A DNA stretch of 64,000 nucleotides from Bdellovibrionota bacterium (GCA_050950765.1 JBMNIF010000001.1:448001-512000); one strand, 5' to 3'. Counted from the stretch's first letter, positions 16,067-34,159 are shown. Program-made: numbers and translations. Notes: generated from the letters alone by a model not told the origin.

Positions 16067-16492
16067 TTAGGGTTGTATATTTAAATCGTTAAAGAACGTT
16101 CCAATTAGGGATCGGAGGGCAAAGGCGCTTACGGCAACGACTAATAGCCCTAAGGCGGCTTTATAGTTACCGACTGCGGCGCTTAAGATCGCCATAATAC
16201 CGGCAGCGACCATAACCATAGCACCGAAGGAGCCTTCGATATAGGTTAAAATAGCATTTGTTGCATCAGCTAAACGTTCGTCATTATAGTTAATTGATAC
16301 AGTACCACCCATATAGCCATCAGCAACGACATTGAGAGAGAGTCCTACTATTAATAAGGTCACACCGCAGGCTAATAATATAAATTGTATCTGCAACTTT
16401 GTCGGTGCAACACAAGCAGAGGTGATTTTTTGGCAGATGTGAAGATATTTTTCTGCAATCTGTTTCTTAATAGTCATAATCAAACTCATCAA
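16067..16492 (-). CDS. TrbC/VirB2-like conjugative-type pilin
   Basis: long leader then two Gly/Ala-rich hydrophobic helices split by GNYK; lies at the end of a T4SS cluster. Confidence 0.65.
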   Translation of the reverse strand: MMSLIMTIKKQIAEKYLHICQKITSACVAPTKLQIQFILLACGVTLLIVGLSLNVVADGYMGGTVSINYNDERLADATNAILTYIEGSFGAMVMVAAGIMAILSAAVGNYKAALGLLVVAVSAFALRSLIGTFFNDLNIQP

Positions 16493-16650
16493 AAAGTGCT
16501 TCTTAAAGATCTTTTAAGGAGCGACTGATATTATAAGTTATAGCATAAAGGCATTATTTTCAATACCAATAGAGTGATACCAAGTGAGAGGTGCTAATAG
16601 GAATAGAAAACAACGCAATAAATTACAGATTATTTGGAATAAATTCTAAA

Positions 16651-17163
16651 TTATCCTTGAGCTTTTGATGTCAGTCCAGGGATGAGTTTGAGCGGATCTA
16701 GAGGCTTGCCGTTACGGCGAATTTCAAAGTGGAGGTGTGGTCCTGTGGATTGACCACTATTTCCTAATGTAGCTATGATCTGACCAGCAGCAACCTCTTC
16801 TCCGATTGATATCTTTATCTTATCAAGGTGTCCGTAGTGGCTAGTCATGCCTGAATTGTGGAGGATTACAACTAAATTTCCGTAACCTGCATAGGGATCA
16901 GCGAATACAACCTTACCCCTTCCTATCGCTCTAACGGGAGCTCCTAGTGGTGCTGCTAAATCGATACCGCTATGGTTACGTGTAACTTTAAAGATAGGGT
17001 GTCTTCTTGAGCCGAACTTACTGGAAAGGCGCGGACGTACTACGGGATAAACGAATGAAGGATCTGTTGTGGCTAAGATCTGAGGAGTGGGGAAGGCGTG
17101 ACTGTATTGTGGGATAAGTAGTATGACGAACAATGTAAGTATTGTTGTGAAGTACCCCCTCAT
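16651..17163 (-). CDS. M23 family peptidoglycan endopeptidase
   Basis: HSGID (HxxxD), YGHL and GQSTGPHLHFE motifs; signal peptide. Confidence 0.95.
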   Translation of the reverse strand: MRGYFTTILTLFVILLIPQYSHAFPTPQILATTDPSFVYPVVRPRLSSKFGSRRHPIFKVTRNHSGIDLAAPLGAPVRAIGRGKVVFADPYAGYGNLVVILHNSGMTSHYGHLDKIKISIGEEVAAGQIIATLGNSGQSTGPHLHFEIRRNGKPLDPLKLIPGLTSKAQG

Positions 17164-17179
17164 CTTATCACCACAATAG

Positions 17180-18136
17180 TTAACGTTGTCTGATTAAGTC
17201 CATAGCAGCTTCTTCTACGGTACTACCAGCACTTCTTACTTGAACGGTACGTGATGGAACTGAACGGGGATCCCTACCAAAAGCTACGATATCTTTTGAA
17301 ATCCACGCTCTCTCTCCTGTGGGAGCAACAACTCTAAACCAGTCTCCAGACCTCGTCTCTATCGCTAAACGTGTGCCCTTCGCAATGGACATCATCGGAG
17401 AGTGATTCATGCCTGGACCTGCTCTAAGGTTGGCTTTATCAACAACCACCGTTGCGATAGGCATCTCTTCTGTTGTTTTGCGTGATTGTACGGGAGTTAA
17501 TAAAGATTCTCTTTCTTGATTAACTTGATTAACTCGGTTTCTGTTAGAACTTCTGTTGTATACCTGTTTAAGGGGTGGATTGATGCTCTTCCCAGAGCCC
17601 TGAATAATATCGCTCAACCTTTCGACCTCAGTTTCCGCAACCATTAATTTATTGCGTAACTCTATCACCTTATTTGATAGTAACTTTACTTGACGTTCGC
17701 TTTCTGCCAGCTGTTTTTCTAGTCGAGAATTTTTATTTTGGATCTCCGCCGATGATTTTTTTTGGAGATTGACCTCATCTTTTAAAGTGGAATTTTCACC
17801 ACGTAATTTTTTTATTTTATTATTAATCTGATTTAAAATTTCGTTAGAAGGTAGTCCGTCTTTCTCAAGGGCATTTTCTTTTTTAAGCTCTGTTTCCTGC
17901 GGCAATGCTTTTTGAACCAGATCGGATTTTGTATTACTTTTTAAGGATATTGTTGCTTTAGCTAAAGCTTGAGGAGCTTCCCAATTTGTTTCACTCAATA
18001 ATTTTTCTTCTTCGGCGAGAAGGGCAGCTTCTGCTTGATAAGGATCTAGGTTATCTACTTCAGCATATGCGGAGTTGCTGAAAAGTATAATTCCGAGAAA
18101 AAAACCTCTGCTAATGTATTTATTTAAATTAATCAC
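17180..18136 (-). CDS. exported coiled-coil protein with SH3b domain
   Basis: signal peptide (AYA), long coiled coil, ANLRAGPG...GDWFRV...AWI. Confidence 0.85.
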   Translation of the reverse strand: MINLNKYISRGFFLGIILFSNSAYAEVDNLDPYQAEAALLAEEEKLLSETNWEAPQALAKATISLKSNTKSDLVQKALPQETELKKENALEKDGLPSNEILNQINNKIKKLRGENSTLKDEVNLQKKSSAEIQNKNSRLEKQLAESERQVKLLSNKVIELRNKLMVAETEVERLSDIIQGSGKSINPPLKQVYNRSSNRNRVNQVNQERESLLTPVQSRKTTEEMPIATVVVDKANLRAGPGMNHSPMMSIAKGTRLAIETRSGDWFRVVAPTGERAWISKDIVAFGRDPRSVPSRTVQVRSAGSTVEEAAMDLIRQR

Positions 18137-18181
18137 GTTAACTACCCCTCGTTATGTATATACGGTGTGTCGAAACGTTCT

Positions 18182-18736
18182 CTATTGTTCATCCGAACTT
18201 TCTTGTTCCTGTTCGTCTAAAACTTTTTGTACCGTTTCTAAGGCAGCTTTATGACGCGCATCACGCTCTCTCTGGAGCATATCCTGCACTTCCTTAGGAG
18301 CGGCTATCCCCTTCATGACAATCTCTATGCCTGAAGTTCCGGAAGTTCCGACTAATACAGTTCCAACGTTCAGAGCTCTCTCTATAAGGGACTGCTCAGT
18401 CTCTACACTCCTAATATCTTCATATCTGATGCGAGTGATCCTCTGTTGAAGTGAAATTCTTCCAATTAAAGACTCTATTCCTTTAGGATCTACCACATAA
18501 CGAACATCGTAAATCCTCCAAGCTAGAACAACGAGGGTTATAAACGGAAAGAGCCATAAAAGGGGGAGTTTTAAGGTAACTGTATACGAAGTAGTGCTGA
18601 ATAACTCTCCGATTATGATTGAATTTGGAAGCTTTTTTGATAGCCAAACAGTACAGATAGCGGATAGGAAAAACAATATTATTCCCCATAATTCAGAACG
18701 CCAAGCCTTTGGTATTACAAGAGTACCTTTAATCAT
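18182..18736 (-). CDS. membrane protein with bacterial PH domain (bPH_2/YdbS-like)
   Basis: 2 TM helices then IRYEDIRSVETEQSLIERALNVGTVLVGTSG. Confidence 0.8.
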   Translation of the reverse strand: MIKGTLVIPKAWRSELWGIILFFLSAICTVWLSKKLPNSIIIGELFSTTSYTVTLKLPLLWLFPFITLVVLAWRIYDVRYVVDPKGIESLIGRISLQQRITRIRYEDIRSVETEQSLIERALNVGTVLVGTSGTSGIEIVMKGIAAPKEVQDMLQRERDARHKAALETVQKVLDEQEQESSDEQ

Positions 18737-18758
18737 TTCAAATAGTTCCGGAGTACGA

Positions 18759-19130
18759 TTAAAGAGAATTTAAGATATCTTCAAGTGAAGAAGGATCTGT
18801 TGAACCTTCTTGCGGACGTGCCTGTTTAGGTTGAACTTCTCTCTTTTTGGCACCGTCACTCTCCCCAAAAGGTAACAGTTTAAAAGGTTTTGAAGTATCT
18901 ATATCTCCAGCTGGTTGAAGGTTTCTTTCTTGTTGAGCTTGTTGTTGAACCGCAACTCTGTGTGTAACACCCTCATTTTGCTTAGGAATTACATTAGTAT
19001 TTGAGCTAACCTCAACTTTTCCGCCGCTTAACCTAAAAACGGAAAAGAGCACTGCCACCAATATGATAATTACTAAATGAAACTTATTGGTTAGTGGTGC
19101 AAGTAAATTTTTAGTACTTATAAATGCCAT
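18759..19130 (-). CDS. hypothetical single-TM protein
   Basis: N-terminal hydrophobic helix and low-complexity tail; lies within the operon. Confidence 0.7.
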   Translation of the reverse strand: MAFISTKNLLAPLTNKFHLVIIILVAVLFSVFRLSGGKVEVSSNTNVIPKQNEGVTHRVAVQQQAQQERNLQPAGDIDTSKPFKLLPFGESDGAKKREVQPKQARPQEGSTDPSSLEDILNSL

Positions 19131-19226
19131 CGATCACGATCTCCAATCCCTCTCCATACCTCCCACTCAATACCACAACTCAGACATTTATAGCAGATTG
19201 TGATACGGCTCTACCATAGAGATTAT

Positions 19227-19514
19227 TTATTTGTTGTTTGGATCTTTGTAATACCTCCAACGCCCCTGTCGTACCTCAACCACAGCTTGGTGCGCCGGTC
19301 TGTAATAAGTACCCTCAGGGTCGTAACCTGGCGGAATGTCAATAACATCAACCATTGGCGGTTCATATACAAACTCGACAGCCCCTGGATCAGGAACTAC
19401 GGTAACCTGTTCTTTAACGATCGGCCCACTTACTATTTCCTGCCTAGAAGAGCAGCCTATTACAGAAAATAGTGCTAGTATGGCGATAATATTGAGTATT
19501 TTTATCTTCTTCAC
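19227..19514 (-). CDS. small lipoprotein in T4SS cluster
   Basis: lipobox VIGC; 4-bp overlap with the traC stop. Confidence 0.75.
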   Translation of the reverse strand: MKKIKILNIIAILALFSVIGCSSRQEIVSGPIVKEQVTVVPDPGAVEFVYEPPMVDVIDIPPGYDPEGTYYRPAHQAVVEVRQGRWRYYKDPNNK

Positions 19515-22246
19515 AGTACATCCTCCATTATATCTGAAACAGCCTCTGCACTACTTGGTGCTTGCATGGTATCGTCAACAAATCTTTGCGGAACACTTTG
19601 GAATACTCGCATAGCTTTGGCACCATTAGGAGCTAATCTAATAGCCTCAGTAAATGCAGATAAAAATTCATTATCATACTTCTCTAACAGTTCGGCAAAG
19701 AGTTGGTTATCGTCTCCGTTATTCGTACTTGCCCAATAAAAAGCCGGTTCTATCGGAAGAACCAAAGCTCCTTCTCCGATATCGGACAAAAAGTAGAACT
19801 GACTTTCTAACCCGATTACAGTTCTCAAACGGAGGATAACGTTAGCTTGTTGCTCTGTAAGGTTAAAGGCTTCCGCTGTGTAGTGGAATTTACTGGGATC
19901 TTGCCGGAGGAAGATCTTATGTGCGCTGTTTTGAACGATAGCTTGTCCACCTGCGCCAACGTAAAAATCTTCGCCGGATTGTGATGCCGCAATAACGATA
20001 CCTTTCCTTTTACGATACAACCTAAAAGCAGTTTCAATCGTATTACCCGCTGTTTTTCCGATTAAATCATGAGCTTCATCAAATACCAATACTTTACGGG
20101 TATCAATTTCATTAACATCGTTCATGACGCTATCAGCCCAAAGCATAGCGATCTTTAGGAAAACACGTTGCAGATCGGGGTTGCGACTAAGGGCTTTTAA
20201 GTCAAAAACTATAAAGCGCTCCTTTAGGCTTAAAGATCCCGGCCTATCGAAGAATCGAGCATAAGTGCCTTCTCCGTAATAGTCTCCGACCAGAACTGCG
20301 ATTTTCTGTCTGCGTAAAGCATCGGGTTCATTTTCATTAACCTTTTTAGGAGCACGTAAAACGGCAACGATATCACTTAAGATAAACTCTCGACGCATCG
20401 GACCACTTCGGTAAATTCTATGAGCTTCAACCACAGAATCCATTACGGCAGCTCTATCAAGTCGATCTAACGCTGTATGCGCATCTGCCGCCATATCCAT
20501 AATAACATCTGCTGACATATCGATTAGATCTTTATAATCTTCGTTAGTAGTATCAGGTGGTGTTTCTCCCAAGCGTGCTAAAAAGTTCATAGCAGGAGCA
20601 CGTGACGGTGTTGCTTCATAAACTCGACCGCCGAACAATTTAGCAACTTTGTCAAATCCGCAAGGATGTCCTGGCATACCTTTATCAAAGACGAAGGTAA
20701 TCGGTGGTCTCTCTAAGATCCTGCCATCAGATCGGGTAGCGTAATGTCCACGCATCATAGTGATGATTAAGAAACAGAGTAGGTACGATTTTCCAGAACC
20801 GGAAACTCCACTAATTAAAAGGTTGGGAGCAAGGTTAGAGTCGTAAAGGTCGAAGCCGACAAGTTCTCTGTTCCACAAACTTGGTAGTACGATTAAAGGT
20901 GAAGGGCTCCCTTGCCAGTTACCCCAGACTGGGAAAAGTCTGACTGCTCGTGAAGAACGCATCGTTGTAGTCCAGCCTGAACCATCTGTGGTCGGATCAT
21001 AACAACCTGGAAGGCTGTTAATGATGACGGCTAGATCGGAGATTTTGTGTTCCATACCGCGCGCACCGTGCAGTTGCGGAAACGTTGCGATCGCTTCGGA
21101 GGCAGCACGAATAGCTTCCTCTCTAGTTTGGCAGATGAAAGTTTGATGTACCCCGACACGCACTATCTGCGAGGTGTTGTTGTAAAGTTCGTTACGAGCC
21201 GCTCTGATAGCACCGATCTGATGTTGAACTTTCTGATCGGATCTTCCGAAAAAGTTCATTTCACGTAGACCCAAAAGGGAATCAAGCCCATCAAGTCTCT
21301 GAATCTGCTTCTCTTGCGTATCTTTGGAATAAGTTACACTAAGAATATTCTCGTAGGCAGAAGATTGTAACGGCGTGATCATTAATGGCAAGCACTGTTT
21401 CGGAGGTTTTACCATTGAAACAGATCGAAAGTATCTACCATCTTTTTTAATGATGCCGTTTTCTGGATGCTCAGCGTGTGTCTCCGAAAGTTGGTTTGAA
21501 AGGTATTCATCTGGATCAAAAACAGGCACGGGGATGCTGGAAGTTCTACCACGTTTAAACTTTCCTGATTTCGTACTTCTACGATTTAATAACGGATAAA
21601 GAAGGTTGATTAGCCCTTGCCCATCAACGCGTGTCGGTGAAAATCCGATATCCCTTAATTTGATAGCGCTACCTTCAACTATTCCTCTGAACTTGTTAGC
21701 GTATTCAAGGTATTCAGAACGTCTTTCTGCAGCGGAGATACCGACCTTACCAGTGAAAAAAATCTTTAGAGTTTGAGTCATAGATGACAAGAAGCCAACA
21801 TCTTTCCAAGGTGGATCGTATCTAAAGCAGACTATTAAACGCATGGAGCGGGGGCGGCGTGCAAAGTTAGCACTGGTTGAGGTGCGGCGAATTGATCGGA
21901 TCCAACGTCTCGCCATCCAACCAGCGGCTCCACTTGTTGGAAAACGGTTCATGGAGTCACGCAAAACATTTCCGACATCAAAGGTGGTGACCCAAACCCA
22001 CTGTGCGCTGATGGTGTGATCTAAAGAATCCATCATCTCTTGAATGTTTTCACAGATCTGAAACGCTTCAACGTCAGAGATGGTACAGATCCATTTCGGC
22101 TGAAGTTCCCAAATAGACCAGATTGACGCATCCGCATGGACAAAAAGCTGCTGTTCTACATCCCATTTAGCAAAAGGTAGTAGAGAGTTGAAGAGCTTTT
22201 CATCCTTAAATAACCTCTCTCTTTGTAAGCGATTTATACCGCCCAT
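19511..22246 (-). CDS. traC: TraC/VirB4 family T4SS ATPase
   Basis: 911 aa; Walker A GVSGSGKS, Walker B VFDEAH, and RLYRKRKG..IAASQS..DF...G.AI..NS..K..LRQ typical of TraC. Confidence 0.88.
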   Translation of the reverse strand: MGGINRLQRERLFKDEKLFNSLLPFAKWDVEQQLFVHADASIWSIWELQPKWICTISDVEAFQICENIQEMMDSLDHTISAQWVWVTTFDVGNVLRDSMNRFPTSGAAGWMARRWIRSIRRTSTSANFARRPRSMRLIVCFRYDPPWKDVGFLSSMTQTLKIFFTGKVGISAAERRSEYLEYANKFRGIVEGSAIKLRDIGFSPTRVDGQGLINLLYPLLNRRSTKSGKFKRGRTSSIPVPVFDPDEYLSNQLSETHAEHPENGIIKKDGRYFRSVSMVKPPKQCLPLMITPLQSSAYENILSVTYSKDTQEKQIQRLDGLDSLLGLREMNFFGRSDQKVQHQIGAIRAARNELYNNTSQIVRVGVHQTFICQTREEAIRAASEAIATFPQLHGARGMEHKISDLAVIINSLPGCYDPTTDGSGWTTTMRSSRAVRLFPVWGNWQGSPSPLIVLPSLWNRELVGFDLYDSNLAPNLLISGVSGSGKSYLLCFLIITMMRGHYATRSDGRILERPPITFVFDKGMPGHPCGFDKVAKLFGGRVYEATPSRAPAMNFLARLGETPPDTTNEDYKDLIDMSADVIMDMAADAHTALDRLDRAAVMDSVVEAHRIYRSGPMRREFILSDIVAVLRAPKKVNENEPDALRRQKIAVLVGDYYGEGTYARFFDRPGSLSLKERFIVFDLKALSRNPDLQRVFLKIAMLWADSVMNDVNEIDTRKVLVFDEAHDLIGKTAGNTIETAFRLYRKRKGIVIAASQSGEDFYVGAGGQAIVQNSAHKIFLRQDPSKFHYTAEAFNLTEQQANVILRLRTVIGLESQFYFLSDIGEGALVLPIEPAFYWASTNNGDDNQLFAELLEKYDNEFLSAFTEAIRLAPNGAKAMRVFQSVPQRFVDDTMQAPSSAEAVSDIMEDVL

Positions 22247-22294
22247 GTTTTAATCTCCTCTGCAACCTGCAATAACCATAAGTTTCCTTTGCGG

Positions 22295-22798
22295 TTATTG
22301 CTTTATAACCTCATTAAGACTCGGCTCGACATCCCGTTTTGGTAAAAACCTTATCTCTTTATTTTGATGATCTAGCGCCACCTTTATATCGGCACTTTTT
22401 TCAATAGCAGTTGCTATCTCTGTAATAGTTCCGATAGTGGTCAGTGTAAGCTTTTTATCTGCTACAATACTTGAGCAGTAGGTGCGATACCGTGCCGTAG
22501 CTCCTAAAACCAATATAGCTTCACTTAAAGGAGCGTCCTTTACACTAAAATCTAAGATCGGCACAACCAGATCTGCCTTTGATGATTCAATACGACGATC
22601 TGGAGTCATTTCAGGTGGACGAACCCAACGTGTTGCACCGTAAACAGGTTGTGGCGGAAGTTGTCGTGTCGCCATTTTATAGGTGCGAGGCTTCTTTTTT
22701 GTATCCCACTGTGGACCTTCACGACTAGAGCAACCTGAAAATATCAGTGGCACAAGAAGTAAAGAGCTGAAGATGTATGAGTTCCGTATTAGTTTCAT
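22295..22798 (-). CDS. lipoprotein with a possible secretin N0/STN-like domain
   Basis: lipobox FSGC; FSVKDAPLSEAILVL...TITEIATAIEKSADIKV pattern. Confidence 0.6.
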   Translation of the reverse strand: MKLIRNSYIFSSLLLVPLIFSGCSSREGPQWDTKKKPRTYKMATRQLPPQPVYGATRWVRPPEMTPDRRIESSKADLVVPILDFSVKDAPLSEAILVLGATARYRTYCSSIVADKKLTLTTIGTITEIATAIEKSADIKVALDHQNKEIRFLPKRDVEPSLNEVIKQ

Positions 22799-22805
22799 TT
22801 ATATC

Positions 22806-23261
22806 CTATTTCTTAATATCCCCATCAAAAACGTAAGGAATATTACTTCCTCCTCCACCTCTCTTTAGTTGATTCTCAAGTTCAAAAGCATCCGTTACTG
22901 CCCATCTATCTTTTAAAACTTTTAAGTAATAATAGTGTGACGGGACTAAGTCACCGTGCTTATTTAGATGATCCGGAATCCACATTAAACGTACCACCGC
23001 TGGTTGGATGACGGGCTTGTCAGGACTGGGGGAGTTGGCACGTTGATAACTTGACATCTGCTCTAAGGCTTGTCTGGCGCTATCTTCCTTCATCCCACTA
23101 CCATTTAAGGCGTGATCATTAGCTTCGCCTTGTAGTGCAATTTTTGATGGTTCTTCATAAAACGGGTTTACTACCTTCCCCATGAATCCGCATCCACTAA
23201 GCGCTAACATTGCAAAAACTATTATACTTAAATTAATCTTGTTCATTGTTGTCAGCTCCAT
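22806..23261 (-). CDS. traV: TraV-like T4SS lipoprotein
   Basis: lipobox LSGC; VRLMWIPDHLNKHGDLVPSHYYY matches the TraV R.WI.P..D..GDL motif; follows traB. Confidence 0.78.
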   Translation of the reverse strand: MELTTMNKINLSIIVFAMLALSGCGFMGKVVNPFYEEPSKIALQGEANDHALNGSGMKEDSARQALEQMSSYQRANSPSPDKPVIQPAVVRLMWIPDHLNKHGDLVPSHYYYLKVLKDRWAVTDAFELENQLKRGGGGSNIPYVFDGDIKK

Positions 23262-23293
23262 ATAAAAACTATCAAATTGCTAAGCGACCTTAA

Positions 23294-24451
23294 TTAATCA
23301 AGGGAAACAAATACAGCCTCCTCTTCTCCTTCAGTTAAAGCATCATACAGTCCGTCTATGGTCTTGCTTGAAGAAAAAACTGCTGTTGCTGTACGACCGG
23401 AAAGCACTCTTACGTGCGGTACCATCATATCAGCGCGCTCTTCAATAAAATCAGCCCATTTTTCACCTGCTTTTTCAACACCTTTACCTGCACCGTATTC
23501 CCACAACTCACCCTCAACAATTCTGCTAACTCCGTAAGCGCTGGAATAGGTATTAACCTGCGACTCTGATAACCCTTCGCCAACACCCTCGACCGTGCCA
23601 GCCAAGAGAGAGCCAGCCATAGCTCGTCCGATAGGATCAATTAAGATCCCCTCCATTCCGGATAAACCATCTTCGCCAACAACCCAACCATCAACAGGAA
23701 CTATTTTGCGCGCACCGTTAGGTAGGCTTATATTAAGGGTGTGTAAACGGAAAAGTGCTCTTTGATCGGTGAGAGAACCTTGAGCGGCGGCTAGTAGACG
23801 TGCATTCCCAAGGGGAAGTGTTGTTCCATCAGGTCCAATCACATCATCAATCAACTCCATAACGACGGGGTAGGGGGTGCCATCAACAGGGGCATGCACA
23901 CCAGCTAGTAACTTGACTTTAACAGAATCTCCTGTGCCGATGACTGCTAAGCGTTGCTCTTTCGGGGGAGCGGGGATCTCAACTTCTGAGTTTTCAAGCT
24001 CTCCAAAAGATTCTAACCCCTCTGGAACTTGTTCAATAATCTCTTCACCTTCAATATCAACAGGTTGCTCCTGTTTTATGCTGGCGTTAGTAACGGTGTT
24101 TTCAAGATCTGCCATTTTTTCAAGCATCCGCTTCATAATCGCAGCAGTTTGCTCTTCATTTCTCGCTATCTTTTCACTCATCTCTTGGAGATTTTGAGCG
24201 TTCTTTTGCGCTTCGCTCTGTGCCTTATCTATCTTCTGACCGTAAGCGATCATAAAGTCGTTACGAGTTTCTTCATTGGCAGTAGCACCTGTGTCAACTA
24301 TGATATCAGGCTCTACGTGAATCCTCTGTTTTTTTGCATCACCAAAGATGCCCCAAACTAAGAAAATTACGATTACACACGCTATAACTTGTGTTTTTCG
24401 ATCTTCTCTTAGTTTTAAAATTAGATCATCGATACTTTGTCTAAGAGCCAT
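23294..24451 (-). CDS. traB: TraB/VirB10-like T4SS core protein
   Basis: TM, coiled coil, then KLLAGVHAP, AQGSLTDQRALFRL and VDGWVVGEDGLSGMEG motifs. Confidence 0.82.
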   Translation of the reverse strand: MALRQSIDDLILKLREDRKTQVIACVIVIFLVWGIFGDAKKQRIHVEPDIIVDTGATANEETRNDFMIAYGQKIDKAQSEAQKNAQNLQEMSEKIARNEEQTAAIMKRMLEKMADLENTVTNASIKQEQPVDIEGEEIIEQVPEGLESFGELENSEVEIPAPPKEQRLAVIGTGDSVKVKLLAGVHAPVDGTPYPVVMELIDDVIGPDGTTLPLGNARLLAAAQGSLTDQRALFRLHTLNISLPNGARKIVPVDGWVVGEDGLSGMEGILIDPIGRAMAGSLLAGTVEGVGEGLSESQVNTYSSAYGVSRIVEGELWEYGAGKGVEKAGEKWADFIEERADMMVPHVRVLSGRTATAVFSSSKTIDGLYDALTEGEEEAVFVSLD

Positions 24452-24471
24452 TTTACAACCTCCTACCTTGA

Positions 24472-25314
24472 TTACCTGTAACTTTTTGCTTTTGTGACCA
24501 CATAAACTTTAGTCTTATCTTTTCTGGCGACCTCTTGTTCTATCGTTAGTGGTCGTGGGGCTAGTTCCCACTTCTCAGCAGAGATGGCACGAGTTCCATC
24601 AAGTCTGAAAGTAGCGGGATTAAGTTTCTGACTCTGATCCAATAAATTTTCAGCATCGATAACGTAACCCCATAAATTAGGCCCAATAAAGATCTTGTCG
24701 ACAGTCGCTCTTATGGCACCATCGTGTAGAACCGATTCTCCTTTAAATCTGTTGCTGACTCTGTAACCAGGGATCCCCTTTTTCCCAAACTCAGCAACGA
24801 GGATCATCTCTCTAACAAAACCGCTCACTGTTGAAGAAGGAGCGTATTCAAATTTCCCCTCTTCGTAGTCTTTTAACTCTTCCTCTTCATTGATGGTATT
24901 ATCACGACGATCTTCAATCTTTATTACATCATCACGGGGGTTTTCTTGGTTTGCTAAACGTACCCTAATAGAATAAGAACGCCCATCGTCGAGTCTAACG
25001 ATGATGGCCTCTCCTTTTACGTTAAGACCTTCTGTGGCAAAAACTATTAAATCTGTATCTTTTCTATCGAGGTGCAGATTTGAAAGCTGCTTCTTATAGC
25101 CACCTTTGATAATGCCAGGGAATTGAATCTGCGTCGGCTCTCCAGGGGTAACGTTAATCGTTACCTCAGAATCACTATATTCTACGTCACGTGCTGAAGC
25201 TGTATTGACCAGCAAAAAGGCTCCAACTATACCGATTAAAAAGCCACTGGTTATTGTTGAATATTTCATTGTCATCTCCACACTTTTATAATTATTCAGG
25301 TGACCCTGTTTCAA
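24472..25314 (-). CDS. traK: TraK/VirB9-like T4SS secretin-type protein
   Basis: signal peptide (true start probably MTMKYS), PTQIQFP and DDGRSYSIR; lies between traE and traB. Confidence 0.7.
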   Translation of the reverse strand: MKQGHLNNYKSVEMTMKYSTITSGFLIGIVGAFLLVNTASARDVEYSDSEVTINVTPGEPTQIQFPGIIKGGYKKQLSNLHLDRKDTDLIVFATEGLNVKGEAIIVRLDDGRSYSIRVRLANQENPRDDVIKIEDRRDNTINEEEELKDYEEGKFEYAPSSTVSGFVREMILVAEFGKKGIPGYRVSNRFKGESVLHDGAIRATVDKIFIGPNLWGYVIDAENLLDQSQKLNPATFRLDGTRAISAEKWELAPRPLTIEQEVARKDKTKVYVVTKAKSYR

Positions 25315-25924
25315 TGTTTACAATCATAATTCCATAATCGTTATACTTAACGTTTCTAGGGAATGTTTTCATTGTGATGTAATATTGCATAGTATCTGGG
25401 GGTAGTGGTTCTCCACCTATCGTTTTATGACGTTCCCCAACCGTCCTCATCTTTACAAGACCACTTTTTTCTTCTCTAGTAATGGTAGTTTTAGTCGGGT
25501 CTATATAATAAACTTGAGTTCTGCTAGTCTGTTTAATGGCTTCAAGATCTTTTCCTAAAACTTCCTCTTCAAACATACTTAATACAGGGGGCTCAAGCAT
25601 TTCAGCTGCGGCTAAAAACTGTTTTTCAGCTACGTAAGGTTGATAAGTGGCTACTAAATTGATGAATTGCTCTCCAACTGTTAAAAACTCACTATCTTGT
25701 ATTTCATCAGCAGAATAATGCCCAGGAAGTGGTCTAGCCGGTACATTTAAGTTTATTACTCTATTTGACCACATCGTGATGGCGAAGATTAGAGCGATAA
25801 CTGTGGCAGGGATCTGAAGGAGTGCCATAGCACGCCAAAGTAAAGCTTGCTCCCTATAATTTTCCCACAACCTAAGGGTGTCGTTATCTTTTTTTGATTC
25901 GCGAAATCGCGAATCATTGATCAA
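25292..25924 (-). CDS. traE: TraE/VirB8-like protein (5' end possibly frameshifted)
   Basis: single TM then a periplasmic domain with FINLVATYQP; lies between traL and traK. Confidence 0.65.
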   Translation of the reverse strand: MINDSRFRESKKDNDTLRLWENYREQALLWRAMALLQIPATVIALIFAITMWSNRVINLNVPARPLPGHYSADEIQDSEFLTVGEQFINLVATYQPYVAEKQFLAAAEMLEPPVLSMFEEEVLGKDLEAIKQTSRTQVYYIDPTKTTITREEKSGLVKMRTVGERHKTIGGEPLPPDTMQYYITMKTFPRNVKYNDYGIMIVNIETGSPE

Positions 25925-26023
25925 CCTTTTTTGCCGCTTCTGTTATAGGTTTTTTGTCATTCATCTAAAATCCTTATCTAAATCCTAATTATTACAAAAC
26001 ATCTTCCTGTTCCGTTACGCTCC

Positions 26024-26449
26024 TCAAAAGTAATACTTCTCCGCTTCACTGAACCTTGATTCATTGACAAAAACTTTATCCAATTGCAGTTGTAAATATT
26101 TGCAATCTTTTTTCACATCTTCCAGCTCTTGATAAGGAGCGCCGCTCCAAACCGGTTGCAACTTAGCTGGTGGTGGTATATCAACTGGTGTAAAGCCAAG
26201 AATCGACATCACATGATTTCTAAGACCACGTTCTTGGTCGGGATATATCTGGCGCAGTCTGGCTAATGTAATGGGAAATCCAACCAGAACTATAATGATA
26301 AGAGGCATATAACGTCCCCAATTATTTTTCGGAAGGAATAATTCAACAAATAACATTGCAAATATTAATCCTGAAGCCCACTCCATCGGTTTTGCACCGA
26401 AGAAGGTCCAATCTTCATTTAGTCTTGGAATAACCTGTCCATCATCCAT
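26024..26449 (-). CDS. traL: TraL/VirB3-like membrane protein
   Basis: IPRLNEDWTFFGAKPMEW start, 2 TM helices and RG..NH motif; heads the L-E-K-B order. Confidence 0.65.
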   Translation of the reverse strand: MDDGQVIPRLNEDWTFFGAKPMEWASGLIFAMLFVELFLPKNNWGRYMPLIIIVLVGFPITLARLRQIYPDQERGLRNHVMSILGFTPVDIPPPAKLQPVWSGAPYQELEDVKKDCKYLQLQLDKVFVNESRFSEAEKYYF

Positions 26450-26499
26450 ATCTAAGCTACGCCTAAAAAATAATTACCCTAAACAGTTATCTACAAACG

Positions 26500-27171
26500 T
26501 TATCTGATTGCTCCATTCAAAAGACGGGAATCAGGAGTATAGGTGGTTCCTGTTTCACTTTCTCTCGGTTTAGGAGCTAGAATTCTATTTAAGTCTTCTG
26601 CACGGTCTAAAATGCTGTTGCGCCAAGCACTTATATCCACAAGGATTTGAGGGTTGGCGAGACGAACACCTAAATCAAACTCTCTAACTGCTGTAAGTAG
26701 TAGATTCCTCGCCTGTGCATAATGTTTTATCCCGACCTTTAAGGTTTTCCCTTTTACCTCAGTGATGGGAGCGCCGATCTTTGTTAACTCTTTCGGCTTT
26801 AGGTATTCTTCATTGATAAAGCGTGGTGCTGCCACAAAATCAACTCCTTGTTGATTGGCTTGTGGTTGTGGATCTAAGATCCTTTCCAGATCTTCTGCAC
26901 GATCTAGTAAAGTGTTGCGCCATTGCTGAATATCTAAAAGTAGTTGTGGATCTACGAATTTCACGCCGAGATCAAACTCTTGGACGGCCTTTATAATAAA
27001 ATGTCTGGTACGTGCATAATGTCCGGAAGCAGCTGCCAATGACCTGACATCCGCACCTTCTTCCGAAACTTCTATAGGCTGGTTTTCTTCTTGAGCATTA
27101 ACAGGAAGAGAAAAAAAAGGTACGAATAAAAATGTAACGGCAACAACAACGCTCGATTTTAAAAAAACCAT
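26500..27171 (-). CDS. exported protein with two copies of a ~70 aa domain
   Basis: signal peptide; HYA..R....AV.EFDLGV....PQ.L.DI..WRN..LDRAEDL.RIL.P.P occurs twice. Confidence 0.8.
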   Translation of the reverse strand: MVFLKSSVVVAVTFLFVPFFSLPVNAQEENQPIEVSEEGADVRSLAAASGHYARTRHFIIKAVQEFDLGVKFVDPQLLLDIQQWRNTLLDRAEDLERILDPQPQANQQGVDFVAAPRFINEEYLKPKELTKIGAPITEVKGKTLKVGIKHYAQARNLLLTAVREFDLGVRLANPQILVDISAWRNSILDRAEDLNRILAPKPRESETGTTYTPDSRLLNGAIR

Positions 27172-27439
27172 TTTTATACCCTTAAACGAATTTAAAATTG
27201 TTACAACTAGCGGCTATTATTTATAATAACTGAGCGAATAAATTAACTTTTTACGGAAATAAAAAGAAATACCCCCAGTTTCACCATAATATCCGAGCCA
27301 TCTCTTATCTTGATCCACTTTTAAGGATCTATAATGCTAAATAAAACTATCTGCATAGACAGCTATCGACAGATTTAAGGTGAGAACTTTATGCTTTCTA
27401 TCGATAATTTGTTAGTTTTTGAAAAAGTAGAGGTTTTTC

Positions 27440-29165
27440 CTAGCCTTCCAATTAGGACACCCACTTTTAACCTCCGTGCAGATCTAACTAGTCCTGTCTT
27501 CAGTTGCAGCCCGTTCTGCTGTCCCTAGTGGGTGGTGGTAAATTCCCCCCGTCTAGATCTAGCTGACTCGTTTTGTAGCATCAGCCCGTTCGATCGTCCT
27601 TAGAGGGTGCTGCCTTTTACCTCCGTAAAAACCTAGCCAGTTCGTTTTGCAGTATAGCCTCCAATTAGGACACCCACTTTTACTGGTGGGTGGCACCAAA
27701 TTCCAAACCTTAAGATTTTTGCTAACATCCTGATATCATTGGTAGCCCTGAAGGGTGGCACCAAATTTTTAACCTTCGTCCAGATCTAACCTCCAATTAG
27801 GACACCCACCTTTTACCTCCGTCCAGATCTAGCCTTCCAATTAGGACACCCACCCTTAGCTGAAGGGTGGCACCAGATTTTTCCGTGCAGATCTAACTAG
27901 TCCTGTCTTCAGTTGCAGCCCGTTCTGCTGTCCCTAGTGGGTGGTGGTAAATTCCCCCCGTCTAGATCTAGCTGACTCGTTTTGTAGCATCAGCCCGTTC
28001 GATCGTCCTTAGAGGGTGCTGCCTTTTACCTCCGTAAAAACCTAGCCAGTTCGTTTTGCAGTATAGCCTCCAATTAGGACACCCACTTTTACTGGTGGGT
28101 GGCACCAAATTCCAAACCTTAAGATTTTTGCTAACATCCTGATATCATTGGTAGCCCTGAAGGGTGGCACCAAATTTTTAACGCCTTAAGATTTTTGCTA
28201 ACATCCTGATATCATTGGTAGCCCTGAAGGGTGGCACCAGATTTTTAACCTACGTCCAGATCTAGCCTTCCAATTAGGACACCCACCCTTAGCTGGTGGG
28301 TGGCACCAAAACTGCCAATCCAAATGCTAGCCAAACGAGCTGCAAATCTGAAGGGTGGCACCAAAACTGCCAATTCTGGGCTTTTGCTAACATCTTGATA
28401 TTGTTAGCTATTGTAGTTTTAGAGTTTGGGTGTCCTATTTGTGAAGCGTCCTTGCCTGCTGTCCGTTACTGAAGGGTGGCACCAGTGACAGCCCCAAACA
28501 AAGAAGGGTGGCACCAGATTTTTAACCGTGCAGATCTAACTAGTCCTGTCTTCAGTTGCAGCCCGTTCTGCTGTCCCTAGTGGGTGGTGGTAAATTCCCC
28601 CCGTCTAGATCTAGCTGACTCGTTTTGTAGCATCAGCCCGTTCGATCGTCCTTAGAGGGTGCTGCCTTTTACCTCCGTAAAAACCTAGCCAGTTCGTTTT
28701 GCAGTATAGCCTCCAATTAGGACACCCACTTTTACTGGTGGGTGGCACCAAATTCCAAACCTTAAGATTTTTGCTAACATCCTGATATCATTGGTAGCCC
28801 TGAAGGGTGGCACCAAATTTTTAACCTTCGTCCAGATCTAACCTCCAATTAGGACACCCACCCTTAGCTGAAGGGTGGCACCAGATTTTTAACCTCCTGC
28901 TGTCCGTTACTGGTGGGTGGCACCAAAACTGCCAATTCTGGGTTTTTGCTAACATCTTGATATTGTTAGCTATTGTAGTTTTAGAGTTTGGGTGTCCTAT
29001 TTGTGAAGCGTCCTTGCCTGCTGTCCGTTACTGAAGGGTGGCACCAGTGACAGCCCCAAACAAAGAAGGGTGGCACCAAATTTTTAACCTCCGTAGAAAC
29101 CTAACCGATCCGCTCTGCAGTTGCAGCCCGTTCTGCCGTCCCTGAAGGGTGGCACCAGATTTTGG
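27440..29165. repeat. hierarchical non-coding repeat array
   Basis: 300-bp block at 27474, 27883 and 28526; ~170-bp block at 28353 and 28915; gggtggcacca x17; caattaggacacccac x8. Confidence 0.97.
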
Positions 29166-29993: not shown

Positions 29994-31751
29994 TTAACGA
30001 GCTTTATAATGGGTGTGTAGTAAGTGATGACTTTTTTCACCCAAAGGCTCTCCTAAGAACTCAGCATAAAGTTTCTTAATCGATTCATTGCTATGACTGG
30101 TTCGAACACTCCCCTCACTATCTAACTTATACAACCCCTGCATACGACTTTTGATCTTTACTAGGTCTGTTCCTAACGGTTGTCCGCCACCGCCGACGCA
30201 ACCTCCAGGGCAGGTCATGACCTCAATAAAGTGTAGGTCAGGACGCTTGCCGTCTTTTACATCAGCTATGACCTGTTTAACATTACCGATACCACTAACA
30301 ACAGCAACTCCGACCTTTAGTCCGTTAATGTCGAGATGTGCTTCCTTTACGCCATCAAGTCCACGAACCGCTTCAATCTTAAGGTCTGCAAGCTCACTTC
30401 CTGTAATCAAGTGATAAGCAGTACGGACAGCAGCTTCCATTACACCACCCGTTGCTCCGAACAATTTACCAGCAGTGGTACGCTCACCGAATGGGAGGTC
30501 AGCTTCACTCGGCTCTAAGTTCTTTAAGTCTATTCCAAACTTGTGAATTAAACGTGCCAATTCTCTTGTTGTTAGAACTGCATCCACATCGGGCGTGACA
30601 GAGTCGCCTAACATTTCAGGTCTGGCACATTCGAACTTCTTGGCTGTACACGGCATTATACTGACAGAGAATATTTTAGACGGATCGAGCCCTTCCTTCT
30701 CTGCAAAGTAACTCTTTATAACAGCACCCAACATCTGTTGCGGGCTTTTACAGGTCGAAAGATTAGGAAGCATCTCCGGATAGAACTGCTCCATGTACTT
30801 AATCCAACCAGGTGAACAACTGGTGAACATCGGAAGCACGCCACCTGTTGTGATACGTTTGACGAGCTCACTCGCTTCCTCCATGATCGTTAAGTCTGCT
30901 GAGAAGCTGGTGTCAAAGACCTTGTTAAAACCGATCTGACGCAAAGCTGCCACCATCTTACCAGCAACATCAGCACCCCCTTCAACACCGAAATCCTCAC
31001 CAATCGTAACGGAGACAGCAGGTGCATGTTGTACAACAACCGTTAGATCTGGATTGTTGATAGCATCCATAACCTGTTTGACATAACTTCTTTCACGTAG
31101 AGCACCTGTGGGACAGACAGTTATACACTGACCACAATTGATGCAGGTACTTTTATTTAAGCCTTCGTTGAAAGCCGTTCCAACGATGGTCTTACTACCT
31201 CGTCCGATATAATCGATAGCTGAAACACCGATCACCTCTTCACATACCCTGACACACCGTCCGCACAAAATGCACTTATCAGGGTCTCTAACAAGTGATG
31301 GGCTGGAGAGATCTATTTCATGATGAGACCTTTCACCTTCGAACCTCTTTTCACGAACTCCTAATTCACCAGCTAGAGATTGTAATTTACAATTGCCGTT
31401 ACGTGTGCAGTACAAACAATCATCAGGATGATTCGCCAATAATAGCTCAATAATCGTCTTTCTAGCCTGCAGAACTCGGGGTGAGTGGGTTTTTATCTTC
31501 ATCCCTGGATGAACAGGATAAGCGCAACTAGGGATAAGCGCTGGTCGTCCCTCCATTTCAACTACGCACATACGACAAGCTCCGCTCGGGAAGAAATTTT
31601 CCATATGACAGAGCGTCGGAATAGAAATTCCAGCGCGTTTTAAAACATCAAGGAGGATCTCTCCCTGCTCAGCTTCTATCGTGCGGTTATTTACTTCGAT
31701 TGTAATCATAACGTTTAACCCTAATGACAGACCTTTATTTATTACATACAA
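29994..31751 (-). CDS. hydA: [FeFe]-hydrogenase catalytic subunit (HydA/HndD type)
   Basis: H-cluster motifs FTSCSPGW, MPCTAKKFE and EVMTCPGGCVGGGGQP; N-terminal 2Fe-2S and 4Fe-4S domains; true start probably MITIEV (~31709). Confidence 0.96.
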   Translation of the reverse strand: MYVINKGLSLGLNVMITIEVNNRTIEAEQGEILLDVLKRAGISIPTLCHMENFFPSGACRMCVVEMEGRPALIPSCAYPVHPGMKIKTHSPRVLQARKTIIELLLANHPDDCLYCTRNGNCKLQSLAGELGVREKRFEGERSHHEIDLSSPSLVRDPDKCILCGRCVRVCEEVIGVSAIDYIGRGSKTIVGTAFNEGLNKSTCINCGQCITVCPTGALRERSYVKQVMDAINNPDLTVVVQHAPAVSVTIGEDFGVEGGADVAGKMVAALRQIGFNKVFDTSFSADLTIMEEASELVKRITTGGVLPMFTSCSPGWIKYMEQFYPEMLPNLSTCKSPQQMLGAVIKSYFAEKEGLDPSKIFSVSIMPCTAKKFECARPEMLGDSVTPDVDAVLTTRELARLIHKFGIDLKNLEPSEADLPFGERTTAGKLFGATGGVMEAAVRTAYHLITGSELADLKIEAVRGLDGVKEAHLDINGLKVGVAVVSGIGNVKQVIADVKDGKRPDLHFIEVMTCPGGCVGGGGQPLGTDLVKIKSRMQGLYKLDSEGSVRTSHSNESIKKLYAEFLGEPLGEKSHHLLHTHYKAR

Positions 31752-33687
31752 TGGCGTTAAATTTGCATTTTTCTATGCAGGCGCCACATGCGATACACTT
31801 GTCTTGATCGATTGTGTGAGGTTGCTTAACGGTTCCCGTAATTGCAACGACAGGACAACTCCTTGCACACGCCGTACACCCCGTACATTTATCTGCAAGT
31901 ATTTCAAACTTACGCAAACTCTTACACTCACCGGCAGGACAGCGACGCTCAAAGACGTGAGCTTCATATTCATCACGGAAGAACTTAAGGGTACTAAGAA
32001 CGGGATTCGGTGCCGTTTGACCTAAACCACACAAGCTGGAATCCTTCACTACATTTGCTAAACGTTCTAAAGATACAACACTAAGCATCCTTTTTAACTC
32101 AGTGTGATCACCTTTTTCACCGCCGTGCCCAGTCGAAGTGATGCTCTCTAAAGTTTCAAGAAGTCTTCTCGTACCTTCACGACACGGTACACACTTGCCG
32201 CAACTTTCACGTTGGATAAACTCCATAAAGAACTTAGCAACATCAACCATACAGGTATCTTCATCCATCACAACTAAACCACCGGAACCCATCATGGCAC
32301 CGACTGTTTTTAGCGATTCATAATCAACCTCAATTCCGATATGTTGCTGCGGGATACAACCGCCGGAAGGTCCACCAATCTGAACTGATTTATAAGCTTT
32401 GCCGTTTGGAATACCACCTCCGATACCAAATACGATATCTTCTACTTTGGTTCCCATCGCAACCTCAACAAGTCCGGTGCGATTGACCTTTCCTGAAAGG
32501 GCAAAAACTTTCGTTCCCTTACTGGTAGGTGTTCCGATACTACTAAACCAAGCAGAACCATTTCTTAAGATACCGGGGATATTGGCGAGTGTTTCAACGT
32601 TATTGATAACTGTCGGTTTGCCAAAAAGCCCTTTAACCGCCGGAAAGGGAGGTCTAGGACGTGGCATACCACGCTTCCCTTCAATGCTGTGCAATAGCGC
32701 TGTTTCTTCACCACAAACGAAAGCACCAGCACCCATCTTGATAATTATTTCAAGACTGAAATTAGTTCCGAGTATATTTTCCCCTAACAAACCATAAGCG
32801 GTAGCATCAGCTATGGCCTCTTTTAAGCGTGCAATTGCTAACGGATATTCGGCACGGATATAAACGTAAGCTTTAGAAGCTCCAATACCGAACGCCGCTA
32901 TCGCCATACCTTCAAGCAACTGATGCGGGTTACCTTCAATCACGGCACGATCCATAAATGCACCTGGATCGCCTTCATCAGCGTTACAAACTATATACTT
33001 CTGTTCATTCTGCTCCTGTAAGGCGAACTTCCATTTTTTACCGGTAGAGAAGCCACCGCCGCCACGTCCGCGCAAGCCACTTTTCTCAACTTCATCACAG
33101 ACACTCGCCGCATCCATCGTTTTAATAACCTTGCTTAGCGCTTTGTATCCATCGTTTGCGATGTACTCTTCGATGCTGCGTGGATTCGTCTTACCACATT
33201 GAGAAAGCACCCAACGGGTTTGTGGTTTAAAAAATGGATGATCATTAATATTCGGCACACCATCCCAAGCTTTTAATCGTGGCGATGTGAATTGACCGAG
33301 AACGTGGTCCGCAGGGATCTTATCTGCAAAAACATCTTTCAATAAGTTTTTTACCACGTTGTGAGTAACCTCTTGAAAGGAAACTCTGGTGCGTCCAGGT
33401 AATTGAATATCAACCAAAGGCTCTGCGGAGCAGAGACCGATACAGCCGACCTCAATTATCTCAACATCAAGCCCGTTTTCGGCAACGTATTCTTTAATAG
33501 CATCTAAAGTTTTTCCAGCACCTGCGCCTAATCCGCACGTTCCAGCACCGACAAATATTACAGGACGCTCAACATCCTCTCTGCGTAGAGTGGCGCAGTA
33601 GTTATTGACCCGTTCTAAAGCATCTCCTTCAAGAGTGCCGCTGAAATAATTAATTAAATCTTGACACGGTTTCTTTGTCTCTTGCAT
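31735..33687 (-). CDS. hydB: NuoF-like diaphorase subunit (HydB/HndC) with N-terminal thioredoxin-like 2Fe-2S and C-terminal 2x[4Fe-4S]
   Basis: GLRGRGGGGF, CNADEGDPGAFMDR, GAGAFVCGEETAL, ESCGKCVPCREG and CTGCTACARSC motifs. Confidence 0.95.
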   Translation of the reverse strand: MQETKKPCQDLINYFSGTLEGDALERVNNYCATLRREDVERPVIFVGAGTCGLGAGAGKTLDAIKEYVAENGLDVEIIEVGCIGLCSAEPLVDIQLPGRTRVSFQEVTHNVVKNLLKDVFADKIPADHVLGQFTSPRLKAWDGVPNINDHPFFKPQTRWVLSQCGKTNPRSIEEYIANDGYKALSKVIKTMDAASVCDEVEKSGLRGRGGGGFSTGKKWKFALQEQNEQKYIVCNADEGDPGAFMDRAVIEGNPHQLLEGMAIAAFGIGASKAYVYIRAEYPLAIARLKEAIADATAYGLLGENILGTNFSLEIIIKMGAGAFVCGEETALLHSIEGKRGMPRPRPPFPAVKGLFGKPTVINNVETLANIPGILRNGSAWFSSIGTPTSKGTKVFALSGKVNRTGLVEVAMGTKVEDIVFGIGGGIPNGKAYKSVQIGGPSGGCIPQQHIGIEVDYESLKTVGAMMGSGGLVVMDEDTCMVDVAKFFMEFIQRESCGKCVPCREGTRRLLETLESITSTGHGGEKGDHTELKRMLSVVSLERLANVVKDSSLCGLGQTAPNPVLSTLKFFRDEYEAHVFERRCPAGECKSLRKFEILADKCTGCTACARSCPVVAITGTVKQPHTIDQDKCIACGACIEKCKFNAIVCNK

Positions 33688-33697
33688 GGTTCATCCT

Positions 33698-34159
33698 TTA
33701 TTTCTGTTTACAAGTCTCTATAATCTCGTGAATACGTTCTGGTGTTAACTTGGCAAAGAACTCTCCGTTAACTGTTATGACAGGAGCAAGCCCGCAAGCA
33801 CCAATACAAGCAACAACCTCAATACTAAATAAGCCATCTGGCGTTGTTTCTCCAGCCTTAATGCCCAACTCTTCTTGTAATGTTTCAAGGATACGTAACG
33901 ATCCCTTAACGTGACACGCCGTTCCACGACAACATTGGATATGATACTTTCCGATCGATTGAAAGCGAAACTGATTATAGAACGTTGCTACACCGTAAAT
34001 TTTACTAAGTGGAATATCTAACAACTCCCCAATTGTTTCTATTGATTCACGCGATAAATACCCTTCAGTATCCTGAATCTCCTGCAAAATAGGGATCAGG
34101 GAGTCACGTCCAGGATTTTGATAATGGCTAAGGATCTCCTGTATTTTATTCGTTGTCAT
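33698..34159 (-). CDS. hydC: NuoE-like 2Fe-2S subunit (HydC/HndA)
   Basis: LIPILQEIQ, GVATFYNQF, CRGTACHVKG and CIGACGLAP motifs. Confidence 0.95.
   Translation of the reverse strand: MTTNKIQEILSHYQNPGRDSLIPILQEIQDTEGYLSRESIETIGELLDIPLSKIYGVATFYNQFRFQSIGKYHIQCCRGTACHVKGSLRILETLQEELGIKAGETTPDGLFSIEVVACIGACGLAPVITVNGEFFAKLTPERIHEIIETCKQK

Follow-up and report, generated by a model that had tools for sequence, protein, structure and literature searches.

The stretch of DNA analysed here, referred to below as the window, comprises 64,000 nucleotides (nt) from a Bdellovibrionota bacterium (GCA_050950765.1, JBMNIF010000001.1:448001-512000). At positions 16067-27171, on the minus strand, it carries a closely packed cluster of 14 genes (gaps from -23 to 158 bp) related to the type IV secretion systems (T4SSs) of F-type conjugative plasmids. 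In the 5' to 3' direction the genes encode a repeat protein, a protein in the TraL position, TraE, TraK, TraB, TraV, a DotD-like lipoprotein, TraC, five envelope proteins and a pilin. The products of the five genes located between TraC and the pilin are a lipoprotein of 95 amino acids (aa), a membrane protein of 123 aa, one protein with a bPH_2 domain and one with an SH3b domain, and an M23 peptidase. None of the 14 reading frames is interrupted. The tra genes, envelope genes and pilin listed in an earlier description of this DNA, the sequence-only reading, are thus present and co-oriented, TraL by position only. The cluster is best read as the core of a complete, chromosome-owned T4SS with F-like (MPF_F-like, after mating-pair formation) conjugation ancestry, inherited vertically since the ancestor of the lineage; the probability that it represents a functional, vertically inherited and non-mobile T4SS is put at about 0.85.

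A convergent uppP gene, already noticed as abutting the cluster, lies 12 bp from its end, and the rest of the window is occupied by housekeeping genes: ppk, ahcY, ffh, pckG, relA/spoT, mutL, miaA, clpB, ispH, pyrB, and others. Neither an integrase, a relaxase, a type IV coupling protein (T4CP) nor a replication gene was found among the open reading frames (ORFs) scanned in the window (33 + 22), and its single tRNA gene, at position 54374, is 27 kb away from the cluster; the ORF and tRNA scans therefore bear out the earlier statement that such genes and a flanking tRNA are lacking here. The host-like composition, previously judged by eye, is reflected in the cluster's GC content of 0.40-0.45, compared with 0.40-0.415 for the contigs. 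The cluster lacks a VirB11-type gene, and a scan for promoters and terminators returned counts no different from chance.

Distribution and inheritance of the core

The TraC gene is present in a single copy in 39 of 41 relatives representing 21 families. In the phylum, as defined by the genome collection and at a completeness of at least 85%, it was found in 95 of 96 genomes, in each of the 73 high-quality genomes and in each of the 54 genera; the lone negative genome is 89% complete. The identity of TraC falls with taxonomic rank, from 82% within the same family through about 64-77% within the same order to 56-63% in other orders. In a tree of 22 TraC sequences the members of the three same-family pairs are joined, the seven genomes of other orders form a single clade, and a very long stem parts the family from four outgroups. 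Synteny of the core from TraE to TraC is kept in each of the 12 distant loci compared, whose flanking genes are not shared. The downstream module adjoins the core in most of the loci, the exceptions being those of the genomes G019 and G023.

This TraC is also isolated from plasmid systems. Among 1.84 billion representatives the full-length TraC family is a single cluster at 50% identity (1472 bits), and the next full-length relative scores 192 bits with 29% identity; the closest outgroup TraC proteins come from unrelated metagenome-assembled genomes. A collection of 72,556 plasmids yielded 4354 weak matches, all below 60% identity and none covering at least 80% of TraC; the best 15 of these 4354 matches show 25-28% identity.

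That the cluster could be a decaying or cryptic remnant of a plasmid or of an integrative conjugative element (ICE) might be argued from the conjugative ancestry of its genes and from the variation of the flanking genes among genomes. Such a remnant is, however, hardly compatible with a near-universal, single-copy distribution in which identity tracks taxonomy, with 14 of 14 reading frames intact, with the huge gap to every plasmid or ICE TraC, with the host-like composition or with a window devoid of an integrase, a relaxase and a flanking tRNA. It is extremely improbable, and was discarded on account of the distribution.

The sequence-only reading had proposed a vertically inherited, non-mobile apparatus derived from an F-type system, to be checked by a TraC tree and by synteny in relatives. 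This proposal has held: TraC occurs in nearly all the genomes of the phylum, sits on a long isolated branch and not among plasmid or ICE sequences, and belongs to a core kept in every distant locus, and four relaxase families (specified below) were not found in the source genome. Neither an ICE context nor a patchy, plasmid-nested occurrence of TraC was encountered.

Parts of the cluster and support for their names

The features, with their coordinates, are collected in the table. TraC matches the Pfam families P-loop_TraG (2e-11; 43.7 bits, cut-off 25.8) and TraC_F_IV (3e-7; 30.2 bits, cut-off 28.1). Its best NCBIfam match is the F-type TraC model TIGR02746 (1.6e-53), at 182 bits far below the equivalog cut-off of 567 bits; judged by its sequence, TraC is F-like and not an F-type equivalog. 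TraB matches the F-type TraB model NF010289 (4e-9), and hhalign against F-type TraB gave 99.8%. The best NCBIfam matches of both proteins are thus F-type models, far below the equivalog cut-offs.

For TraE, the match to TIGR02761 is weak (0.018) and the Pfam TraE family was matched by three of seven orthologues, one of them above the cut-off; hhalign against F TraE gave 47% (E 2e-4, 163 columns). In three of the 12 relatives (loci L031, L033 and L036) the TraE/VirB8-like gene is tandemly duplicated. The AlphaFold (AF2) model of TraK has a predicted local distance difference test score (pLDDT) of 80, and its top folds in the PDB, 7spb_C1 (6e-12) and 7oko_3 (5e-11), are the TraK chains of the outer-membrane core complexes of the F plasmid and pED208, followed by VirB9, DotH and CagX; hhalign against F-type references of 2-4 sequences was unsupportive for TraK. 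In TraV it is the conserved C-terminal motif that aligns, with 53.7% for the single pR997 protein and 84.6% (E 6.8e-6) for F-type references of 2-4 sequences. TraV was also the sole match when hhalign was run against single pR997 proteins.

The lipoprotein encoded between TraV and TraC is present in 11 of 12 loci, and its Atlas features are closest to the DotD/TraH lipoprotein (0.95). Residues 80-155 of its AF2 model have a pLDDT of ~97. Foldseek matched this protein to DotD chains of the Dot/Icm core (7mud, 7muc, 6x62 and 3ady) and to secretin N0 domains, the top match being an anti-sigma STN domain, a fold shared with the secretin N0 domain. The likeness to DotD is accordingly one of modelled fold and context only, the N0 fold being widespread. 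We know of no F-type system with a DotD-like lipoprotein.

The protein in the TraL position is kept in 11 of 12 loci (36-49% identity); it has no family match, and hhalign against F TraL gave 0.2%. In the pilin candidate the leader is followed by two conserved hydrophobic helices; the Pfam TrbC/VirB2 family was weakly matched (0.006-0.008) by two of six orthologues, and hhalign against F pilins gave 3.6%. Searches of PDB profiles with the TraK, TraE, TraV and pilin alignments returned no relevant match. The repeat protein, for which Pfam and NCBIfam hold no family, has orthologues of 97-371 aa with one or two repeats, found in the same position in 11 of 12 relatives' loci.

Among the envelope genes, the 95-aa lipoprotein is found in all 12 loci, as a tandem pair in seven of the 12 relatives, and the N-terminus of the 123-aa protein is weakly conserved in five of 12 loci. 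The M23 peptidase displays the HxxxD and HxH motifs, which we take to be the catalytic motifs of this family; it was found in five of 12 loci within the stretch compared and, additionally, in L040. It probably replaces the VirB1 cell-wall hydrolase. Taken together, the cluster is rightly labelled F-like, and to call it a member of the F type would be wrong.

Table. Features of the cluster and other loci discussed in the text (positions in the window, unless a genome, contig or locus is given; G000 is the source genome)
Feature	Size (aa)	Position	Strand	Basis or remark
Secreted repeat protein, first cluster gene	223	26500..27171	-	signal peptide, two ~75-aa helical repeats
TraL/VirB3-position membrane protein	141	26024..26449	-	position and two hydrophobic helices only
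TraE/VirB8-like bitopic protein	210	25292..25924	-	weak colinear matches
TraK/VirB9-like outer-membrane core protein	280	24472..25314	-	TraK_C 1.3e-4, below cut-off; fold
TraB/VirB10-like protein	385	23294..24451	-	Pfam TrbI 2.8e-11, above cut-off
TraV-like lipoprotein	151	22806..23261	-	lipobox LSGC; Pfam TraV 0.0025, below cut-off
DotD-like lipoprotein	167	22295..22798	-	lipobox FSGC; C-terminal secretin-N0/STN-fold domain
TraC/VirB4 ATPase	911	19511..22246	-	Walker A GSGKS and DEAH-type Walker B intact
Small lipoprotein	95	19227..19514	-	lipobox; overlaps traC by 4 nt; no family
123-aa protein	123	18759..19130	-	N-terminal membrane helix, disordered tail
bPH_2 (bacterial PH domain) membrane protein	184	18182..18736	-	Pfam 1.2e-8; in 8/12 loci
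Secreted coiled-coil protein with C-terminal SH3b	318	17180..18136	-	Pfam SH3_3 5e-9; in 9/12 loci
Secreted M23 (LytM-type) peptidoglycan endopeptidase	170	16651..17163	-	Pfam 5e-36; NCBIfam MepM/ShyA-like
VirB2/TrbC-like pilin candidate	141 as listed, true start uncertain	16067..16492	-	leader ending A-x-A
T4CP, TraD/VirD4 class	786	G000:C3:505498-507858		beside mutS, other contig
Three-gene operon TraF-like / 560-aa / TraG(VirB6)-like		G000:C2:942683-948875		third contig
TraG(VirB6)-like gene of the operon	1060	G000:C2:945693-948875		polytopic
VirB6-like paralogue array L042		G050:C2:312000-331999		other order of the lineage
VirB6-like paralogue array L043		G047:C1:2770000-2789999		other order of the lineage
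First ATPase fused to leucine-rich repeats	893	G000:C2:69009-71690 (L017:13010-15691)		
Second ATPase fused to leucine-rich repeats	762	G000:C2:72425-74713 (L017:16426-18714)		
Histone-H1-like protein	206	L015:14786-15406 (G000:C3)	-	near T4CP
Non-coding repeat array		27171-29028		
[FeFe]-hydrogenase trio with NuoF-/NuoE-like subunits		29994-34159	-	
Type IV pilin-like gene		61146-61607		

The rest of the machine and its probable role

A T4CP is encoded on another contig of the source genome. It contains the domains T4SS-DNA_transf (PF02534, 2.9e-42), TrwB_AAD_bind (PF10412) and TraG-D_C (PF12696), membrane helices at the N-terminus and intact Walker motifs. It was detected in 90 of the 96 phylum genomes (E <= 0.001), in two of them as a weak match, and the full-length matches are 58-70% identical. 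In the source genome and seven other loci no conserved neighbour gene accompanies it; a flagellin gene recurs beside it in three.

A third contig carries a three-gene operon. Its first gene specifies a 435-aa protein whose C-terminal domain is thioredoxin-like (Thioredoxin_8/2), with weak Pfam matches in nine of 12 orthologues; hhalign against F-type TraF gave 71.6%, the highest value among six references, and the Pfam TraF model has no match in the source genome. The second gene, u560, encodes a fast-evolving protein of 560 aa, for which Atlas provided the sole lead to TraH; hhalign to TraH gave 0.1%, and a homologue search returned only the protein itself. The product of the third gene weakly matches TraG_N, a VirB6-class domain (3.7e-4); such weak matches, all below the cut-off, were obtained for eight of 13 orthologues. 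The TraG-like protein was detected in 87 of the 96 phylum genomes at 1e-10, and the VirB6-family genes of the lineage are enlarged (700-1190 aa). The synteny of the operon is kept in 12 of 13 loci, and its order parallels traF-traH-traG of annotated F-type plasmids.

The three loci belong together: in G002 the TraG-like operon is located directly upstream of the cluster, the operon of G008 abuts the T4CP gene, and in G049 the T4CP gene is 5 kb from the cluster. The description of the system as stripped-down and lacking DNA-transfer genes, which the window alone had suggested, therefore does not apply to the organism, whose T4CP and TraF-like/TraG-like operon are found on other contigs. Their conservation and their linkage in relatives argue that the machine is complete and coupled to substrates.

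It is also worth mentioning that, instead of the single TraG-like gene, other orders of the lineage possess five tandem TraG_N/VirB6-like paralogues of 614-1156 aa, as in the two arrays given in the table. The C-terminal extension of the T4CP (residues ~670-780) matches separate ORFs in at least 10 other lineage genomes, mostly of 100-400 aa and in one case of 832 aa; these could be adaptors or substrates sharing a docking domain. No second copy of this domain was found in the source genome. A lysine-rich, histone-H1-like protein of low complexity is encoded near the T4CP gene. A 424-aa neighbour of the T4CP in G049 was considered as its partner and rejected, being a ClpB-like AAA+ protein of which the source genome has no orthologue beyond ClpB itself. 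Two adjacent T4CP/HerA-like P-loop ATPases with C-terminal leucine-rich repeats are encoded elsewhere in the source genome, and ORFs of ~745-763 aa weakly matching T4CP occur in seven other lineage genomes. The repeat-fused ATPases could be part of the present secretion system or of a defence system.

Four Pfam relaxase families were searched for in the source genome, TrwC, Relaxase, MobA_MobL and TraI_2 (PF08751, PF03432, PF03389 and PF07514, corresponding to MOBF, MOBP, MOBQ and MOBH), and none was found, with positive controls. The same genome, 94% complete, has no match to TraU (PF06834), TraW (PF12477), TraN (PF06986) or TraH (PF06122) in a search that did not include TrbC_Ftype. These results bear on the possibility that the machine transfers or releases DNA on behalf of its host, by chromosomal exchange or, like the gonococcal genetic island, by secretion, the T4CP being aided by a relaxase that escaped recognition or by some other enzyme of DNA processing. 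The conserved T4CP, whose closest families are the conjugative VirD4/TraD/TraG, the F-like conjugation ancestry of the entire machine and the restriction of the relaxase test to four families would agree with such a role. It is nevertheless unlikely, given the lack in the source genome of the tested relaxases and of the genes for the stabilisation and assembly of mating pairs (TraN, TraU and TraW), and the lack of a conserved companion gene beside the T4CP in the loci compared, where only flagellin recurs. The substrates are most likely proteins, because none of the four tested relaxase families was found and the system lacks mobility.

The sequence-only reading had left open a list of functions: attachment to a host or prey, delivery of effectors, or uptake of DNA. 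Of these, a surface organelle or an uptake device without outward transfer, such as the adhesive Trw pilus of Bartonella or the ComB DNA-uptake channel of Helicobacter, would suit the conserved pilin-like gene that closes the cluster, the T4CP gene located outside it in the source genome, and the conserved envelope-active M23, SH3b and bPH genes. A T4CP retained in 90 of the 96 genomes, and located beside the loci of the system in G008 and G049, speaks against it; to our knowledge, both Trw and ComB work without a T4CP. This alternative is considered somewhat less probable still than DNA transfer. Delivery was the item on the list that gained: a complete machine coupled to substrates by a T4CP would favour translocation over a pilus alone or uptake.

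The preferred reading is therefore that of a host-owned translocator, because the channel is complete, it is accompanied by a pilin and by a coupling ATPase that is conserved, the tested relaxases and mobility are absent, and purifying selection is strong over the lineage's entire history. A complete channel, a T4CP, ownership by the host and the lack of a relaxase (four families tested) are also features of T4SSs that secrete proteins. Contact-dependent delivery of proteins into other cells would be the most likely role, with about an even chance of being correct. In the proposed mechanism TraK, TraV, TraB and the DotD-like lipoprotein would form the outer-membrane core, and TraE, the protein in the TraL position, TraC and the TraG_N/VirB6-like protein encoded elsewhere would make up the inner-membrane platform. 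The cell wall would be opened by the M23 peptidase, acting in the place of VirB1, and the VirB2-like pilin may build a short pilus or a conduit. The conserved coupling ATPase, encoded elsewhere, would supply the substrates, presumably proteins injected on contact into prey bacteria or a eukaryotic host.

Several points weigh against this interpretation. In the TraC tree one of the 22 sequences, that of G002, branches outside its own order. The assignments of TraL, the pilin and u560 follow from position and topology, without significant matches. The best family match of the T4CP is a conjugative VirD4-like model (NF045973, 2e-59). The source genome is 94% complete, and the relaxase search, confined to MOBF, MOBP, MOBQ and MOBH, left out MOBV, MOBC, MOBT and unknown relaxases. 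Gene content, conservation, isolation from plasmid systems and intact ATPase and peptidase motifs are observed, and the assembly of the T4SS, the class of its substrates and their target are inferred.

Among the known systems the closest are those of the F type (F and pED208, and the annotated systems of pDCB1 from Diaphorobacter, pI from Denitratisoma, and pR997). They share with the present one the order traL-traE-traK-traB-traV...traC and a separate, putatively traF-traH-traG-like block; the best family matches of TraC, TraB, TraK, TraE and TraV are F-type models, the TraK fold is closest to TraK of F and pED208, and a VirB11-type gene is absent from the cluster. In contrast to the F type, TraC is here only 25-29% identical to its closest outside relatives (the listed plasmid TraC proteins and the full-length representatives), and TraU, TraH, TraN, TraW and the four tested relaxase families were not found. 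The DotD-like lipoprotein, two small lipoproteins, the bPH protein and the SH3b protein are extra, an M23 peptidase stands in for a lytic transglycosylase, and the pilin gene is the last of the cluster, whereas it is the first in F-type systems. Finally, the system described here belongs to the chromosome, is distributed over three loci and is passed on vertically. The gonococcal genetic island of Neisseria also encodes an F-like chromosomal T4SS with a non-conjugative output. It is an acquired island with a relaxase and TraD, and it secretes single-stranded DNA, while the present system is set apart by its vertical inheritance and by having yielded none of the four relaxase families tested.

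The Legionella Dot/Icm system (type IVB) is likewise lineage-wide and host-owned and possesses a coupling protein, another parallel being the lipoprotein of DotD-like N0 fold next to a VirB9/DotH-like core protein; it differs in that the ATPase and the TraE/K/B/V set of the present cluster resemble those of the F type instead of the I type. Dot/Icm-specific parts other than DotD did not turn up, in analyses that included no search aimed at them. The Rickettsiales vir homologue (rvh) T4SS has VirB11 and duplicated VirB4, VirB8 and VirB9. It resembles the present system in being host-owned and vertically conserved, in its scattered loci, and in having kept the coupling protein (cf. PMC2653234). 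The enlarged VirB6-family genes, multiplied to five tandem paralogues in other orders of this lineage, are a further likeness; rvh is, however, of the VirB/P type and not F-like, with no sequence relationship beyond the superfamily. The effectors of the bacteria-killing X-T4SS of Xanthomonadales carry a recognisable C-terminal domain, and no such effectors have been identified for the present system. The X-T4SS (cf. PMC6536674) is chromosomal, has VirD4, has no relaxase role and is used on contact against other cells. It differs in being VirB-type, and is a plausible functional analogue for a lineage allied to predators.

All the host-owned T4SSs that inject proteins and are known to us derive from VirB-type or Dot/Icm-type machines, and the known roles of F-type machines are conjugation and, in one island, the release of DNA. 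It can tentatively be proposed, with slightly less than even confidence, that an F-type conjugation machine was exapted here into a lineage-defining injection organ, with an origin independent of the VirB- and Dot/Icm-type effector systems, and has since been retained by all members of the lineage. If true, conjugation would have been domesticated once more, independently, and the machine fixed throughout the history of a phylum-level lineage. Full-text literature searching found no description of this system. The odd list of parts (a DotD-like lipoprotein, M23 for VirB1, a multiplied giant VirB6, and no TraU, TraW or TraN) would bear on which F-type parts are dispensable in a functioning channel. 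For a lineage without a cultured member the system offers a handle: a marker gene set, a T4CP for substrate fishing, and a surface structure for cryo-tomography. If it is an injection organ, its substrates would be the key to a predatory or parasitic lifestyle yet to be found in this Bdellovibrio-allied lineage.

Lineage, habitat and neighbouring features

According to PMC13200544, the classes UBA2361 and Oligoflexia were moved to 'Bdellovibrionota_B' in GTDB R226. The lineage described here, a small phylum in the genome collection, appears to be the uncultured UBA2361 / 'Bdellovibrionota_B' branch, a label that is putative. Near-identical DNA was also detected in 14 more runs, which belong to 10 named studies of anaerobic digesters, bioreactors, wastewater and landfill. 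No RNA run was listed among them; two runs of uncertain type, probably DNA, and two metatranscriptome runs gave scattered short contigs or no match. An [FeFe]-hydrogenase trio (HydA/HydB/HydC-like) with NuoF- and NuoE-like subunits is encoded in the window and suggests an anaerobic, fermentative metabolism; the occurrence in digesters, wastewater and landfill fits these hydrogenase genes adjoining the cluster.

The T4SS cluster is separated from a response-regulator gene by a non-coding repeat array, composed of units of ~65-85 nt, each ending in ...GGGTGGCACCA, and containing three identical 300-nt blocks. It matched neither an Rfam family nor a tRNA, and the same type of repeat is present directly downstream of the T4CP gene on contig C3. 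The organism is probably motile: in the source genome (contigs C1, C2 and C3) flagellin-like loci of full length number at least five, alongside two that are weaker or split, and a type IV pilin-like gene is located in the window.

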